Positions 2,734-53,271 of a stretch of 64,000 nt of DNA are shown piece by piece. The stretch lies in the NCBI GenBank assembly GCA_964427135.1, contig CAYRTH010000002.1, positions 12,732-76,731 of the forward strand. The letters are read 5' to 3'. Numbering within the stretch: position 1 is the first letter of the stretch; every line of letters begins with the position of its first letter. The position numbers and the translations under genes were made by a program. The stretch comes from an uncultured Phycisphaeraceae bacterium. Lineage in GTDB: Bacteria > Planctomycetota > Phycisphaerae > Phycisphaerales > Phycisphaeraceae. The notes under the pieces were generated by a model, which saw nothing but the letters and a program-made list of their open reading frames with translations, was not told the origin of the DNA and did not search any database.

Positions 2734-3147
2734 ATGGGACGTTTTCGAGATTCAGGCGCGGATGACAGCGGTGAAGCGGGCATTGACATGTCGCCGCTGA
2801 TCGACTGCGTGTTCATTCTGCTGATTTTTTTCATTGTGACGACGGTGTTCGTGGAAGAGACGGGCGTGGAGGTGGACAAACCGCAGGCAGCGTCGGCGGC
2901 GCAGCTGGAAAAGACCAGCATATTGATTGCGCTCACGAGCAAGGGTGAAGTGGTGTACGGGGGGCGTGAGATTGGAATCAGCGGGGTGCAGCCGTTGGTG
3001 AAGCGGATGCTGCAAAAGGAAAACGTGCCGGTGATCATTCAGGCGGATGCCGCGAGTCAGTCGGGTTTGCTGGTGCGAATTATTGATGAAGCGAAGCTGG
3101 CGGGTGCGGAGAAGGTGAGTTTGGCGAGCTTGCCGCCCAAGCGATGA
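2734..3147 (+). CDS. exbD: ExbD/TolR biopolymer transport protein
   Basis: 137 aa with a single N-terminal TM segment ([19 protein letters not shown]) and a typical ExbD periplasmic domain. Confidence 0.85.
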
Positions 3148-35756: not shown

Positions 35757-35846
35757 GTTTTTCATGAGGCATTCAGGGCAACCGCAGCTTTCATCATTGG
35801 CGAAATTTGTTACAGAGACATGACAGGACGAACTATGCAGAAAGTG

Positions 35847-36300
35847 CCACGAAGTCACGAAGGACACGAAGAAGACCGAAAACATATTGCCGAACCAAAC
35901 AGGGGCCATTGAACAACGCCAAGACGCCAAGTAGATCATCATGGATCGTGAACTTCACCCAGAGTTTCACCGCAGAGTACGCAGAGAGCGCCGAGCAGAA
36001 AGGTGCTGAGTGCTCGGAGCTTGTGGTTAGGTTAAACCGCATCATTTTTGAATCTACCCAGGCGCTCGCCATTTGGTATCTCTGCGTTCTCCGTGTTCTC
36101 TGCGGTGTCAACATGCCGATGAAGTACGGCTGGCCATGGTTGCTGGTCAAGGCAATCGTCAAGAACAGTAAATGAATATCGCAGTAAGCACAGAGGTGAT
36201 TTTGCAACCCCCTTTTTCTTCGATTACTTCCTCTTCGTGTACTTCGTGACTTCGTGGCCCCTCTCTGCTTGGCAACTTGGCCCCTTGGCGGCTTGGCGTT
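35847..36300. repeat. Tandem-word inverted-repeat mosaic (CACGAAG, GCCAAG and GCAGAGA words)
   Basis: A 35847-35874, B 35925-35941, C 35965-35992, C' 36077-36110, A' 36228-36257, B' 36267-36300. Confidence 0.8.
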
Positions 36301-41735: not shown

Positions 41736-42322
41736 ATTTCGGATTTAGCGGGACGACCCGCTGTTGAAGCCGTCGGATTTCGGATTTTGAATTGATGTTT
41801 GATGTTTAGCGCGGACGCTTCGCGTCGGCGTGCTTGATGCCGTGCCCTTCAGGGCCGGATTCGGGGTATGAAATCCGGGGCTATAGCCCTCGGCGTCAGT
41901 GTGTGTCGTGGCATCACCGCATTCGACGATGTGACAAAGCCGCCGATGGCATCGGCGGTCGGTTTGACTCGATGAGTGACAAATCAAGGATGCAATCAAG
42001 ACGGCGGATACCATCCACCGCTTTGTGAATCACACCGCCGAGGGCGGCGGTGCCACAATCAAAATACGCGCGGGTGCCTGTGGCACGTCTGCGTGCCACA
42101 GAAGCTTGTTGCTGTGGGCAGGCAAAATCGCCTGCCCACAGGCACCCAGGGCAAACAGGTATCATTCACGCGACCACTTCTTTTTACCGATTCGCCGATT
42201 CACCGCGCAGAATACCCAGGCCCTCGACCTCCCCCGGGGATCGGTCTCGTTCCCGGCTTGGTAAATCCGAAATTCGAATTTCGACGGCTTCAACAGCGGG
42301 TCGTCCCGCTAAATCCGAAATT
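41735..42322. mobile_element. About 588-bp composite non-autonomous element bounded by perfect 41-bp terminal inverted repeats
   Basis: 41735-41775 is the exact reverse complement of 42282-42322. The interior is built from other repeat families (41835-41898, 41936-42025, 42028-42057, 42072-42146, 42210-42281). No ORF with coding character. Confidence 0.75.
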
Positions 42323-49644: not shown

Positions 49645-50925
49645 ATGAACAACTCGTTCACACAAAACTTGTCAGCACTGGGCCACTCCGATGAACTTTG
49701 GCAGGCGGCGCGCGACTTGAAAGCGTTACCCGCCCCACGACCGCATAATGCGCATGTGCATTTGCCCCCGAATTTCAGCGCGTTTACGACGGTGGAGCAG
49801 GCGGTGCAATTGGCACAAGCTCAATCACTGGTCGGGCTGGGCACAGCCAACTATTACGACTACACCGTTTACGATCAGTTTGCCCCACTCGCGCAACAGG
49901 CGGGCGTGTTTCCGCTTTTGGGCCTTGAAATATTGAGCATGGATGATGGGTTGCGTCAGGCAGGCATCAAGGTCAACGACCCGGGCAACCCCGGCAAAGT
50001 GTACCTGTGCGGCAAAGCGATCCAACCTTCAGCCTCACAGTTTTCCGCCAAGGCACGCAACACCATCGAACGCATTCGTCAGGGGGATGCAGAGCGCCTG
50101 GCGCAAATGATCGACAAACTCGAAACTTACCTGAAGCAGCAGGGCACACCCACAGGGCTGAACTATGCCCGCATTGTCAAGCGGGTCGTGGCCCGTCATG
50201 GCTGCCCAGCCCAGACAGTGTTTTTACAGGAACGGCACGTCGCGCAGGCGTTTCAAGAATTATTGTTTGAAAAATTACCAGGCGCCCAACGGCTTGAAAA
50301 ACTCAGCGGATTGCTGGGCGCAACGACCAAAGCCAAGTCGCCCGATGATGCGGTGACAGTGCAGAACGATTTGCGTTCACACCTGCTCAAGGCGGGCAAA
50401 GTGGCGTTTGTGCCTGAACCATTTATTCAACTGGAAGAAGCCCGCGCCCTGGTGCTGGAATTGCGCGGAATACCCGCATACCCCGTGCTGGCGGACGGCG
50501 CTTCGCCCATCTGCCCGTTTGAAGACCCGGTGAGTGCGTGCATTCATGAACTCAAAAAACGCAAATTGCATGCGGTGGAGTTAATCCCTGTACGCAACAG
50601 CCCGCAGGTGTTGTCGCAGTATGTACAGGCGTTTCGCGCTGCGGGGCTGGTTGTGACAGCCGGGACGGAACACAACACCCTCGACTTGCTGCCGATGGCG
50701 CCGACTTGCGTGAAAGGTGCGGCAATCCCCGCGGAAGCGGCGGCTGTGTTCTGGGAAGGGTTTTTGGTACTGGTCGCTCATCAATACCTGACCAGTGTCG
50801 GAGCACCAGGGTTTGTGCAAAGCAGTGGTGAACCGTGTGCTGGTTTTGCGAATGCCGATGAGCGCATCTGCGCGTTTGCAAAATTGGGCGCGGTGGTGTT
50901 GGAAAGGTTTGGGTCAGGGCATTAA
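49645..50925 (+). CDS. Hypothetical protein, possible metal-dependent hydrolase (N-terminal HxH)
   Basis: 426 aa. The segment NAHVHLPPNFSAF near the N-terminus suggests a PHP/amidohydrolase-like metal site. No confident family. Confidence 0.4.
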   Translation: MNNSFTQNLSALGHSDELWQAARDLKALPAPRPHNAHVHLPPNFSAFTTVEQAVQLAQAQSLVGLGTANYYDYTVYDQFAPLAQQAGVFPLLGLEILSMDDGLRQAGIKVNDPGNPGKVYLCGKAIQPSASQFSAKARNTIERIRQGDAERLAQMIDKLETYLKQQGTPTGLNYARIVKRVVARHGCPAQTVFLQERHVAQAFQELLFEKLPGAQRLEKLSGLLGATTKAKSPDDAVTVQNDLRSHLLKAGKVAFVPEPFIQLEEARALVLELRGIPAYPVLADGASPICPFEDPVSACIHELKKRKLHAVELIPVRNSPQVLSQYVQAFRAAGLVVTAGTEHNTLDLLPMAPTCVKGAAIPAEAAAVFWEGFLVLVAHQYLTSVGAPGFVQSSGEPCAGFANADERICAFAKLGAVVLERFGSGH

Positions 50926-51187
50926 CCACGAAGACACGAAGGACACGAAGAAGAAATCAGAAATGATGTGACAAGTTGAAGGCGACAACGCCAAGACGCC
51001 AAGATAGGAAGACGCCAAGAAGAAGGAACCGACCAAGCAAACATGAACAATCAATAGAAAATATTGAGTCAAGAAACGAACTCGATACGGTTGTTCTGTG
51101 AGAAAAAAATAGTTTCTTTCGGTGGCTCGTTTGCTTCTTCGTGTCCTTCGTGTCTTCGTGGCCAACACTCTTCTTGGCGACTTGGCG
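50926..51187. repeat. Tandem-word inverted-repeat mosaic (CACGAAG and GCCAAG words) with a perfect 28-nt inverted repeat
   Basis: A at 50926-50953 is the exact reverse complement of A' at 51134-51161. B at about 50987-51026 pairs with B' at 51168-51187. The element starts 1 nt after the stop codon. Confidence 0.85.
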
Positions 51188-51243
51188 AAAAAAGATCGCA
51201 GAGCAGACCGTTTGCATTTTGCATGAATTAAAGGACTGGAACC

Positions 51244-53271
51244 ATGGCTTGGCCGACGTTTGCAGCAAGTGATGACCCGGTGGAAGTTTTGGTGAAGCTG
51301 TCGCGCTACTACGGCGGTGACGCTGATTTTGTATTGGCGGGGGGCGGCAACACCTCGGTGAAAATCAGCGATCGACTGCACATCAAGGCCAGTGGTTACC
51401 CGTTGGCAACACTCACCCGCGACGGACTGGTCGAACTGGACCGCTCCCGGTTGACAACCTTGCTGCAAAGCGACCTTGGTCATGACCGGTGGCAACGCGA
51501 AGAACGTTTCAAAAGCGCGATCATGGAAAGTCGTATCGATCCTTCGGCGGGTCGTCGGCCTTCGGTCGAGTCGGTGGTGCATCATGTCGTGCCGGGCCAA
51601 TATGTGGTGCATACCCATGCGACCGTGGCCAATGCCTTGACGTGCTGTGTGCAGGGCGAGGCTTTGTGTCGCAAGTGGTTTGGGGAAGCGGTGCTGTGGG
51701 TGCCGGTGGTCGATCCGGGGTTTGTGCTGGCGCAGACGATTCACCAGTTATTGCAACAACGCAGCGATCAGGGCAAAGGTGTGCGTGCCATACTCATGGC
51801 CAATCACGGGCTGATCGTGTCGGGTGATACGCCGCAAATCATTCGTGAAAATACCGACTTTGTGTTGCAAACCATTGGAGCGCACCTGGGGCTGGATTGG
51901 GAACAGGCACTGGGTACCCCCGTGGGCATCGACAGCCCGCGTTTGTTGGTGAACACCATCGCGCCCTTGTTGCGCGGGTTGCTGGCCGACGACGCGAAGT
52001 TGAAAGTGGTTGCTTTCGATGACAGTGACCGGGTGATGCGACTGGTGGGTACAGCGTTGGGTAAACAACTGGTCATGAGCGGGCCGCTGACCCCCGATCA
52101 GATTGTGTATTGCAACAGCTACCCGTTGTGGGTGGAAGTGAACCCCTCAACCGACGCCCCGGCCCTTGCACAACAATTGCGCCAGGCCATTGAGCAACAT
52201 CGTCAAAGCAAAGGCGACCAGCCCAAAGTGGTGCTGGTGGCGGGGCTGGGGCTTTTTGCCATCGGCGATGACCCGGCAGGGGCGGCCACGGTGCGCGAAT
52301 TGTACCTGGATGCGATTCGTATCATGAGCGGGGCGCAGCGACTGGGCGGCGTGCATCACTTACCCGATGACCAACGCAAATTCATCGAAAACTGGGAAGT
52401 GGAAGCGTATCGCAAATCGATCGCCAAATTGAACGCAGGCAAAGTGGGTCGCGCGGCAGGCAAGGTGGCGGTGGTGACCGGGGCAGCCCAGGGTTTTGGG
52501 CTTGAAATCGCGCAATCATTTGCAGGCGAAGGCGGCTGCGTGGTGCTGACGGATTTGAATCACGCAGCGGCGGAGGCAGCGGCAAGTACGTTGTGTGAAA
52601 AACTGGGGCGCGGCAGGGCGATTGCATTACCCATCAACGTGACCGACAGTGCTTCGGTGGCTGAGTGTCTGCATCAGGTGGTGCGAACCTTCGGCGGGTT
52701 TGATGTGTTCATCAGCAATGCTGGGGTGCTCAAAGCCGGCAGCGTGAAAACGCAGGCGGTGAAGGATTTCGATTTTGTCACCGCGGTGAACTACAAGGGT
52801 TACTTCGTCTGCGTGCAGCAGGCAGCCCCGATCATGGGGTTGCAGCGACTGGCGCAGCCGACGTATTTGTCGGACATCATTCAAATCAATTCAAAGTCGG
52901 GTTTGCAGGGCAGCAACAAAAACGGGGCGTATGCGGGCAGCAAGTTCGGGGGTATCGGGCTGACGCAATCATTTGCGCTGGAATTGATTGAGGACGGCAT
53001 CAAGGTGAACTCGATTTGTCCGGGTAATTTTTTCGATGGGCCGTTGTGGAGTGACCCGAACACTGGGTTGTTTGTGCAATACCTGAGGACGGGCAAGGTG
53101 CCGGGGGCGAAAACGATTGAGGACGTGAAAAAGTTTTACGAGGCGAAGGTGCCGATGGGCCGGGGGTGCACGACGCCGGATGTGATGAAAGCGGTGTTTT
53201 ATTTGATGGAGCAGCAATACGAAACCGGGCAGGCGGTGCCCGTCACCGGCGGACAGGTGATGCTGAATTGA
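51244..53271 (+). CDS. Bifunctional class II aldolase/adducin-domain plus short-chain dehydrogenase (RhaEW/YuxG-like)
   Basis: 675 aa. The N-half is aldolase-like (GGGNTSVK, HTHA). The C-half is an SDR (VTGAAQGFG, YAGSKFG). Confidence 0.8.
   Translation: MAWPTFAASDDPVEVLVKLSRYYGGDADFVLAGGGNTSVKISDRLHIKASGYPLATLTRDGLVELDRSRLTTLLQSDLGHDRWQREERFKSAIMESRIDPSAGRRPSVESVVHHVVPGQYVVHTHATVANALTCCVQGEALCRKWFGEAVLWVPVVDPGFVLAQTIHQLLQQRSDQGKGVRAILMANHGLIVSGDTPQIIRENTDFVLQTIGAHLGLDWEQALGTPVGIDSPRLLVNTIAPLLRGLLADDAKLKVVAFDDSDRVMRLVGTALGKQLVMSGPLTPDQIVYCNSYPLWVEVNPSTDAPALAQQLRQAIEQHRQSKGDQPKVVLVAGLGLFAIGDDPAGAATVRELYLDAIRIMSGAQRLGGVHHLPDDQRKFIENWEVEAYRKSIAKLNAGKVGRAAGKVAVVTGAAQGFGLEIAQSFAGEGGCVVLTDLNHAAAEAAASTLCEKLGRGRAIALPINVTDSASVAECLHQVVRTFGGFDVFISNAGVLKAGSVKTQAVKDFDFVTAVNYKGYFVCVQQAAPIMGLQRLAQPTYLSDIIQINSKSGLQGSNKNGAYAGSKFGGIGLTQSFALELIEDGIKVNSICPGNFFDGPLWSDPNTGLFVQYLRTGKVPGAKTIEDVKKFYEAKVPMGRGCTTPDVMKAVFYLMEQQYETGQAVPVTGGQVMLN

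Follow-up and report, generated by a model that had tools for sequence, protein, structure and literature searches.

In the spacer between two protein genes of an uncultured Phycisphaeraceae bacterium, two pairs of inverted repeats are interleaved rather than nested, and the question raised by this locus is whether a selected RNA fold accounts for the crossed order A<B<A'<B' or whether this order has another origin. The element lies in a stretch of 64,000 nucleotides (the window), which corresponds to C2:12732-76731 of the host genome, G000, a 3.29-Mb draft of 239 contigs that is 93.5% complete. A sequence-only reading of the window had described its anatomy, and this description holds in nearly all respects. 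The 262-base element (50926-51187) is a real, non-coding repeat with crossed arms in an intergenic spacer. An inverted-repeat search pairs 50926-50956 with 51131-51161 (31 nt, 97% complementary), a pairing that contains the exact 28-nt match previously reported between A and A', and recovers the B/B' pairing in two registers, 50989-51004 with 51172-51187 (16 nt, 94%) and 51009-51023 with 51169-51183 (15 nt, 93%), the interleaved order being evident from the arm coordinates. As had been proposed, the arms consist of two to four tandem words with a period of 8-9, CACGAAG+N(1-2) for A and CGCCAAG+N for B. The word doublets CACGAAGNCACGAAG and CGCCAAGNCGCCAAG occur four and five times in the window, as compared to 0.04 and 0.08 times in shuffled sequences, and the core (51027-51130) is indeed AT-rich, with a G+C content of 37.5% versus 57% for the window. 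Concerning the borders, the next ATG (51244) stands 56 nt past the end of B', in agreement with the distance of about 55 nt that had been given, but the gap of 1 nt placed after the upstream stop codon is in fact 0 nt. The b arm has two words, in comparison to four in other copies, which indicates that this element is a truncated copy, and the A-to-B spacer may in other copies consist of decayed NCAAGA-type words. The upstream open reading frame (49645-50925) belongs to no Pfam or NCBIfam family. Two minus-strand open reading frames run through the words, 50957-51268 (103 aa) and 35833-36207 (124 aa); they have no Pfam match and are almost certainly spurious.

Table 1. Coordinates of the element, of its second copy in the window and of related sites; a and b stand for A' and B', and positions without a contig name are those of the window
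Feature	Position	Strand	Remark
TAA stop of upstream open reading frame 49645-50925 (426 aa)	50923..50925	+	element begins at next base
A arm, CCACGAAG-A-CACGAAG-GA-CACGAAG-AAGAAA	50926..50956	+	three CACGAAG words, spacing 8 and 9; family consensus
A-to-B spacer, A-rich	50957..50986	+	
B arm, aaCGCCAAG-A-CGCCAAG-A-TAGGAAG-A-CGCCAAG-AAGAAGG	50987..51026	+	four-word variant, third word degenerate
AT-rich core	51027..51130	.	differs from most other copies' cores
a arm	51131..51161	+	reverse complement of A arm, 31 nt, 97%
b arm, CTTCTTGGCG-A-CTTGGCG	51170..51187	+	two words
Downstream gene, rhamnulose-1-phosphate aldolase / short-chain dehydrogenase-like	51244..53271	+	best NCBIfam match below equivalog cut-off
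Second copy, A arm	35847..35877	+	
Second copy, B arm, two words	35915..35932	+	
Second copy, nested CGCAGAG / CTCTGCG word hairpin	35965..36110	.	third arm family, inside core
Second copy, a arm	36228..36259	+	
Second copy, b arm, four words (CTTGGCaaCTTGGCccCTTGGCggCTTGGCg)	36267..36300	+	
Segment GGCAACCGCAnGCTTTCATCATCGACGAAGTTTG...	window 35775-35846; G000 C5:35862-35925, C80:2229-2300, C10:29376-29412, C52:1915-1951, C130:1467-1502		
Other repeats in relatives	G001 C20:5831-5979, C49:11900-12079, C40:9197-9561; also L005, L017		
Five small cassette genes of G000 (1 GxxExxY, 4 four-helix-bundle)	C19:2644-3106, C87:12324-12820, C30:11934-12463, C66:10616-11090, C130:7083-7640		

The same order of arms had also been reported at 35847-36300 with another core, where it is indeed found, with a CGCAGAG pair nested inside. 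We have mapped all arrays of at least two words in the host genome and counted 28 A, 26 a, 38 B and 26 b arrays, which bears out the expectation of many genomic copies for each arm type. Most of these are simple inverted pairs, with A and a about 200 nt apart and B and b about 150-190 nt apart, and in every inverted pair the purine-rich words come first (7:0 and 14:0), the reverse order never being observed. The 'B4 A3 core b a3' composites found on C15, C40, C80 and C5 are the reverse complement of the 'A3 B core a3 b4' arrangement of the window, and both orientations make up one family, which amounts to seven crossed copies (five complete and two degenerate, with that on C175 included) as compared to a single nested A B b a, located at C50:11754. 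A/B is the only crossing pair among the mapped word families (13 core words). The family has a left module, A3 followed by about 35-45 nt and a B arm with a degenerate third word, and a right module, a3 followed by about 10 nt and b4, and each module is homologous between copies; the cores are common to C5, C40 and C80 only. Relative to the transcription of the flanking genes, three crossed copies read A B a b, two read B A b a and two lie between convergent genes, and thus no orientation rule was found among the seven.

These copies are part of a genome that is rich in tandem arrays of 7-9-nt words belonging to dozens of word families. Among the word arrays, 76% lie outside open reading frames of at least 150 aa, and in co-directional spacers the first array stands at a median of 23 nt past the stop codon, versus 123 nt before the next start. 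A segment of about 40-75 nt (GGCAACCGCAnGCTTTCATCATCGACGAAGTTTG...) is conserved just beyond the A arm in several copies (Table 1), indicating that some A-type elements reach beyond the word array.

We have examined the pairing of the arms at the level of RNA. A strong fold, in which A:a is the main stem, was obtained for the element (-96.7 kcal/mol, z = -8.1). At the eight variable positions of the A arm, arms of the same element match at 5.71, versus 5.51 for arms of different elements (P=0.39), and the A-arm sequence of the window is the joint commonest variant: since two arms from the same element resemble each other no more closely than arms from different ones, the 'perfect 28 nt' pairing results only from both arms carrying the family consensus. 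The sequence-only reading had asked for a covariance analysis of the genomic copies, which we carried out as pair counts on an arms-only alignment of six copies that encoded the two helices as a pseudoknot. The A:a helix is paired in 90% and the B:b helix in 72% of the cells, pairs altered on both sides amount to 3 versus 2.1±1.1 in shuffles, and the covariation score of 0.045 versus 0.035 is reached by 63 of 500 shuffles; within these six copies covariation does not rise above that of the shuffles. A scan of 50926-51187 yielded no sigma-70-like promoter and no intrinsic-terminator-like site: there is no GC-rich stem followed by a T-run within the element, and on the + strand it is a run of A that follows b. 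The suggestion that the element might act as a terminator is thus not supported by these features. Rfam gave no match, either for the whole window at the gathering threshold or for the element at E<=1, and the window contains no rRNA, the element lying between two protein genes and not in a 23S rRNA helix.

The analysis of related genomes evidences a rapid turnover and a different arrangement of the same arms. In the sister species G001 we compared four orthologous spacers, whose flanking genes are 79-88% identical: all four are devoid of A or B words and have other word arrays and REP-like hairpins instead. A partial copy, A..a-b, is present in this species. Judging from these comparisons, crossed-family copies are located at the 3' ends of genes, with a fast turnover between species. 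The upstream gene ends differently in the two species, in its last four codons and its stop (..FGSGH* at window 50911-50925, ..FVRRG* at G001:C7 ~41832-41850), and given that in both the stop stands at or inside the first repeat word, repeat turnover appears to rewrite gene ends. Other repeat families recur in the relatives as well, namely a hairpin GATAAATCGCGGCGCTAAC and a further repeat, CCCTCTCCC..GGGAGAGGG followed by (T)AGGGTGAGGGC (Table 1). In G036, which belongs to another genus, A and B arms are nested, in the order B4, 20 nt, A3-4, core, a3, 12 nt and b3-7. The G036 family is MITE-like, with about 280 nt, a conserved core and a nested B-A..a-b arrangement (L027, L030, L034, L036, L038, L040, L044), and its number of B words varies between copies from 3 to 7, which fits slippage within the arms. 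Autonomous elements, sought in G036 as arm pairs 1-3 kb apart, were not found.

A broader distribution resulted from searches with the A arm by itself. Using as strict definition CACGAAG-N-CACGAAG-NN-CACGAAG, and the reversed pattern as control, the arm is patchily distributed, being present in 12 of 61 genomes of relatives with no hits for the control. The exact 24-nt A arm occurs in at least 120 contigs within a collection of 185,579 species, where about 0.27 would be expected by chance, and the hosts among the matches listed include Methylococcaceae, Acidobacteriota, Gemmatimonadota, Cyanobacteria and Chloroflexota, as well as Verrucomicrobiota, Lentisphaerota and Omnitrophota. In other phyla the arm is usually part of a compact hairpin, ttCACCACGAAG..loop..CTTCGTGGTGaa; among the matches listed, an inverted partner is present for 68% of these arms, the median length of the loop being 34 nt. 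The exact arm is also found in 33 IMG/VR contigs, and it is possible that these are the vehicle of the spread between phyla, or else fragments of host DNA. Within the corresponding stretches (L215-L247), from contigs classified as viral, 15 of 40 A arms have an inverted partner.

Arms of the same two types also bracket small genes. The only PF13366/TIGR04256 gene (GxxExxY, PD-(D/E)XK) of the host genome, at C19:2707-3054, lies between a B4 (2644-2675) and a b4 array (3074-3106), and B arms bracket a GxxExxY gene in G036 also. A arms bracket such genes in the relatives G011, G022 and G030, from three related genera, enclose one (PF13366, TIGR04256; match of 7e-42) in a Deltaproteobacterium and a frameshifted one in a Lentisphaerae MAG, and bracket one, less clearly, in an Alphaproteobacterium; L053 and L109 are among the A-armed GxxExxY loci. 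Considering the PF13366 loci of the relatives, 20 of 27 have inverted word arrays of at least 16 nt versus none of 27 shifted controls, and the arm words are all of CRCVRAG type (CACGGAG, CGCGAAG, CACAGAG, CGCAGAG, CACGAAG and CGCCAAG). On the GxxExxY protein tree the arm words cluster, with 17 changes versus 24.8 in shuffles and none of 200 shuffles as low, and the CACGAAG-armed genes do not form one clade on this poorly resolved tree. Further, all four PF05635 genes of the host genome, which encode four-helix-bundle proteins of 23S-IVS type, are placed between inverted arrays of four different word families, none of them A or B: GCCAAGTG/CACTCGGC, ATTTCGA/TCCGAAA, ATTTGGTG/AAATCACC and GGGGCTA with its complement. 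The pattern in this genome is one gene per repeat family, as each cassette-gene word family has tens to hundreds of gene-less arrays. At G011:C64:66808-67323 (L202) the A arm continues at its purine-rich end directly into AGGAAGGAGG, a Shine-Dalgarno-like sequence placed 7 nt upstream of the ATG of the GxxExxY gene between the arms, for which the arm may supply the ribosome-binding site.

Several observations limit this link between arms and genes. No instance of movement was seen, the 93.5%-complete host assembly holds no A-armed small gene, G001 and G034 have A arms and lack a PF13366 gene altogether, and outside the family only 4 of 113 A-arm loci, among the matches listed, carry the gene. 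The element at 50926-51187 itself has the arm form of the gene-bearing loci, two inverted arms of three to four tandem 7-9-nt words, and encloses neither a PF13366 or PF05635 gene nor a remnant of one, its core (51027-51130) being free of any GxxExxY or four-helix-bundle reading-frame remnant. Gene-less elements may derive from gene-bearing copies, but profile searches of 62 gene-less cores gave no match to either cassette gene at E<=10 besides the true gene.

Taken as a whole, we consider that the element is probably a chimera without a gene, which belongs to a widespread class of small-gene cassettes bounded by hairpins. In such a class the arms would be inverted arrays of three to four tandem words of 7-9 nt, and the full form would enclose a small gene, encoding a GxxExxY PD-(D/E)XK nuclease where the words are of CRCVRAG type, as in A and B, and a four-helix-bundle protein of the 23S-rRNA-IVS type in other families. 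The element at 50926-51187 would then join A arms (CACGAAG) to B arms (CGCCAAG), both families being of GxxExxY type. It reads A-spacer-B at its left end and a-10 nt-b at its right end, the latter as in the nested B A..a b elements of the other genus, G036, and since this right end is the end of the nested G036 elements, the crossed order would derive most simply from one recombinant progenitor. A simple insertion, inversion or deletion that turns a nested into a crossed arrangement was also considered, and none works on paper; the only route that does is a recombination of two nested elements whose modules run in opposite order. Each of these parental types is found, A-B..b-a in G000 (C50:11754) and B-A..a-b in the genome G036, and from two such composites one chimera may have been formed; according to this reconstruction the crossed form would have arisen once and then been copied to about seven intergenic sites. 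A transcript of the element would form an A:a stem of 28-31 bp, which by analogy with rRNA intervening sequences could be a substrate for RNase III or a block to 3'-exonucleases, while the B:b pairing is possible and bears no sign of selection.

These considerations have to be weighed against other explanations. The crossed order itself would be accounted for by a selected structured RNA, in which A:a and B:b form a pseudoknot-like fold in an intercistronic transcript that serves as insulator, terminator or stability element, and for which the crossed order is needed. Most copies can form both helices, the predicted fold is strong, crossed copies outnumber the nested one 7 to 1 in the host genome, and a site just past stop codons is typical, all of which would be expected of such an RNA. 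However, covariation does not exceed that of shuffles, the element is missing from the four orthologous spacers, G036 has both arm types in nested order, copies occur in both orientations relative to transcription, a terminator-like T-run and an Rfam match are absent, and the cores of different copies are unrelated, so that we regard this explanation as highly improbable. In fact, the arm, covariation, orthologue, orientation and other-genus tests together indicate that crossing of the arms characterises a single sub-family and is not a conserved requirement. The view of the sequence-only reading that the architecture is not accidental stands to the extent that the copies constitute one family, but its further step, a crossed A-B-A'-B' order conserved as an RNA pseudoknot, or as an insulator or terminator, is not supported by the sequences compared.

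A quite unlikely origin, in our opinion, is that of long simple-sequence repeats, heptamer or octamer microsatellites which expand by slippage in place and acquire local inverted partners, with no link to a gene or mobile unit. The variable word number in G036, the dozens of word families in the host genome and the published arrays of this kind in Xanthomonas and Nostoc, with inverted pairs near the 3' ends of open reading frames (PMC4692102), agree with it; yet slippage does not explain a 24-nt arm with constant 8/9 spacing that recurs across many phyla far above chance, the homology of arm-plus-spacer modules between dispersed copies, or arms that bracket GxxExxY and four-helix-bundle genes far above controls. 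Terminal inverted repeats, a size under ~600 bp, many dispersed intergenic copies and the ~280-nt G036 family with its conserved core are also features of a classical MITE, which arises from an insertion sequence by internal deletion and is mobilised in trans through recognition of its terminal inverted repeats by a DDE transposase. Nevertheless, 13 A..a elements evidence no target-site duplication above a mis-paired control (k = 2-9 nt, offsets 0-12, the true ends being uncertain), no arm pair of more than 650 nt encloses a transposase in the draft of 239 contigs, and the enclosed gene, where present, encodes a 120-aa PD-(D/E)XK protein. With neither target-site duplication nor parent element found, a MITE of DDE type is not supported, and we take it to be very unlikely. 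The elements are also abundant, intergenic and hairpin-forming in the manner of REP/REPIN sequences moved by a RAYT (Y1 tyrosine transposase), and G000 has Y1_Tnp-like genes (8 matches), but Y1_Tnp occurs in 46 of 61 relatives versus A arms in only 12 of 61, the Y1_Tnp genes of G000 have neither A/B nor other major arrays at their flanks, and the arms are not short palindromes. The RAYT link was rejected, as Y1_Tnp is too widespread and its genes lack flanking arrays, which makes this explanation hardly credible.

The proposed cassette class resembles several known systems in part. In 23S rRNA, intervening sequences that bear an open reading frame carry a PF05635 'S23p' four-helix-bundle ORF in a long stem that is cut by RNase III. 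The likeness consists of a small gene in the loop of a long stem, as for the four PF05635 genes of the host genome with their word-array arms; unlike these sequences, the present element sits in an ordinary intergenic spacer, has no open reading frame and combines the arms of two families in crossed order. The pneumococcal BOX element is a modular mosaic repeat, in which a small set of reusable modules is combined in different orders and numbers. Our element is likewise built from few reusable modules, with no known sequence relation to BOX, whose modules are not known to be tandem-word arrays or to have an associated gene.

The closest known systems also include the cyanobacterial STRR and long simple-sequence repeats, and patchy intergenic heptamer repeats are described in Beggiatoaceae, cyanobacteria and Bacteroidetes (PMC4679880). 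Xanthomonas genomes contain 70-75 inverted pairs of GGGAATC heptamer arrays each, and heptamer arrays are found in Nostoc as well (Rehm et al. 2015, PMC4692102); the Xanthomonas arrays are intergenic and nearer to the 3' end of the upstream open reading frame (average of 28 nt), and the G-rich words were studied as formers of G-quadruplexes and reported at conserved sites (PMC4692102). The arrays under study share with them the tandem 7-9-nt words, the convergent inverted pairs and the intergenic location, with a median of 23 nt past the stop as compared to that average of 28 nt. They differ in that CACGAAG and CGCCAAG have no G runs, in the CRCVRAG type of the words and the many families per genome, in the fast turnover between sister species and in the link of arms to small genes; furthermore, a crossed composite of two families is not described for the Xanthomonas and Nostoc arrays in PMC4692102.

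In respect to the enclosed genes, PMC3424549 lists PF13366 among families of unknown function and gives it several transfers between divisions. A nuclease tied to dispersed repeats is known from Ssn, a GIY-YIG enzyme for which binding and cleavage of NTS/SRM repeats have been demonstrated (Chenal et al. 2025, PMC11893778). As there, a small nuclease gene occurs together with a short sequence in many dispersed copies around genes, one B-armed gene against about 64 B arrays in G000; unlike Ssn, GxxExxY is a PD-(D/E)XK protein with a putative action on the arms, and the NTS are not tandem-word hairpins. The REP/REPIN-RAYT system (PMC3116915, PMC2817692, PMC3733652) is similar in that gene-less hairpin copies far outnumber a single repeat-flanked gene; our elements have no Y1 transposase link, and their arms are word arrays instead of palindromes of 20-40 nt. 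Our search of the literature gave no account of such repeats from Phycisphaerae and none linking word arrays to GxxExxY genes, nor did we find the cassette class in print. What is new is thus the crossed, gene-less form from two families, the underlying kind of repeat being partly known.

A more speculative proposal, which we consider unlikely, goes beyond the cassette class. Two related GxxExxY nucleases would recognise the A and the B arms, respectively, at about one word per protomer, and gene-less hairpins would be copied or excised in trans, in the way that RAYTs act on REPINs or Ssn cuts NTS repeats. The crossed element would then comprise two overlapping mobile units, each addressable via its own hairpin, and would belong to a pan-bacterial nuclease-plus-repeat system, absent from print, that would also be the source of rRNA intervening sequences. 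If the arms are indeed nuclease targets, a crossed copy should have its A hairpin and its B hairpin cut independently.

For the annotation of these genomes, the elements fill many spacers of G000, start at or inside stop codons and yield long spurious open reading frames: they should be masked instead of being annotated as genes or regulatory RNAs. The main value of the analysis is the link between arms and nuclease genes and the identity of the arm across phyla, and not the crossed order itself. An identical 24-nt arm across phyla, together with the same arm types around a small PD-(D/E)XK nuclease gene, constitutes a testable lead, to which the five small genes of the host genome, each framed by a different word family with tens to hundreds of gene-less arrays, also add. 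This lead bears on the origin of the heptamer and octamer word repeats of bacteria, a question left open in PMC4679880 and PMC4692102.
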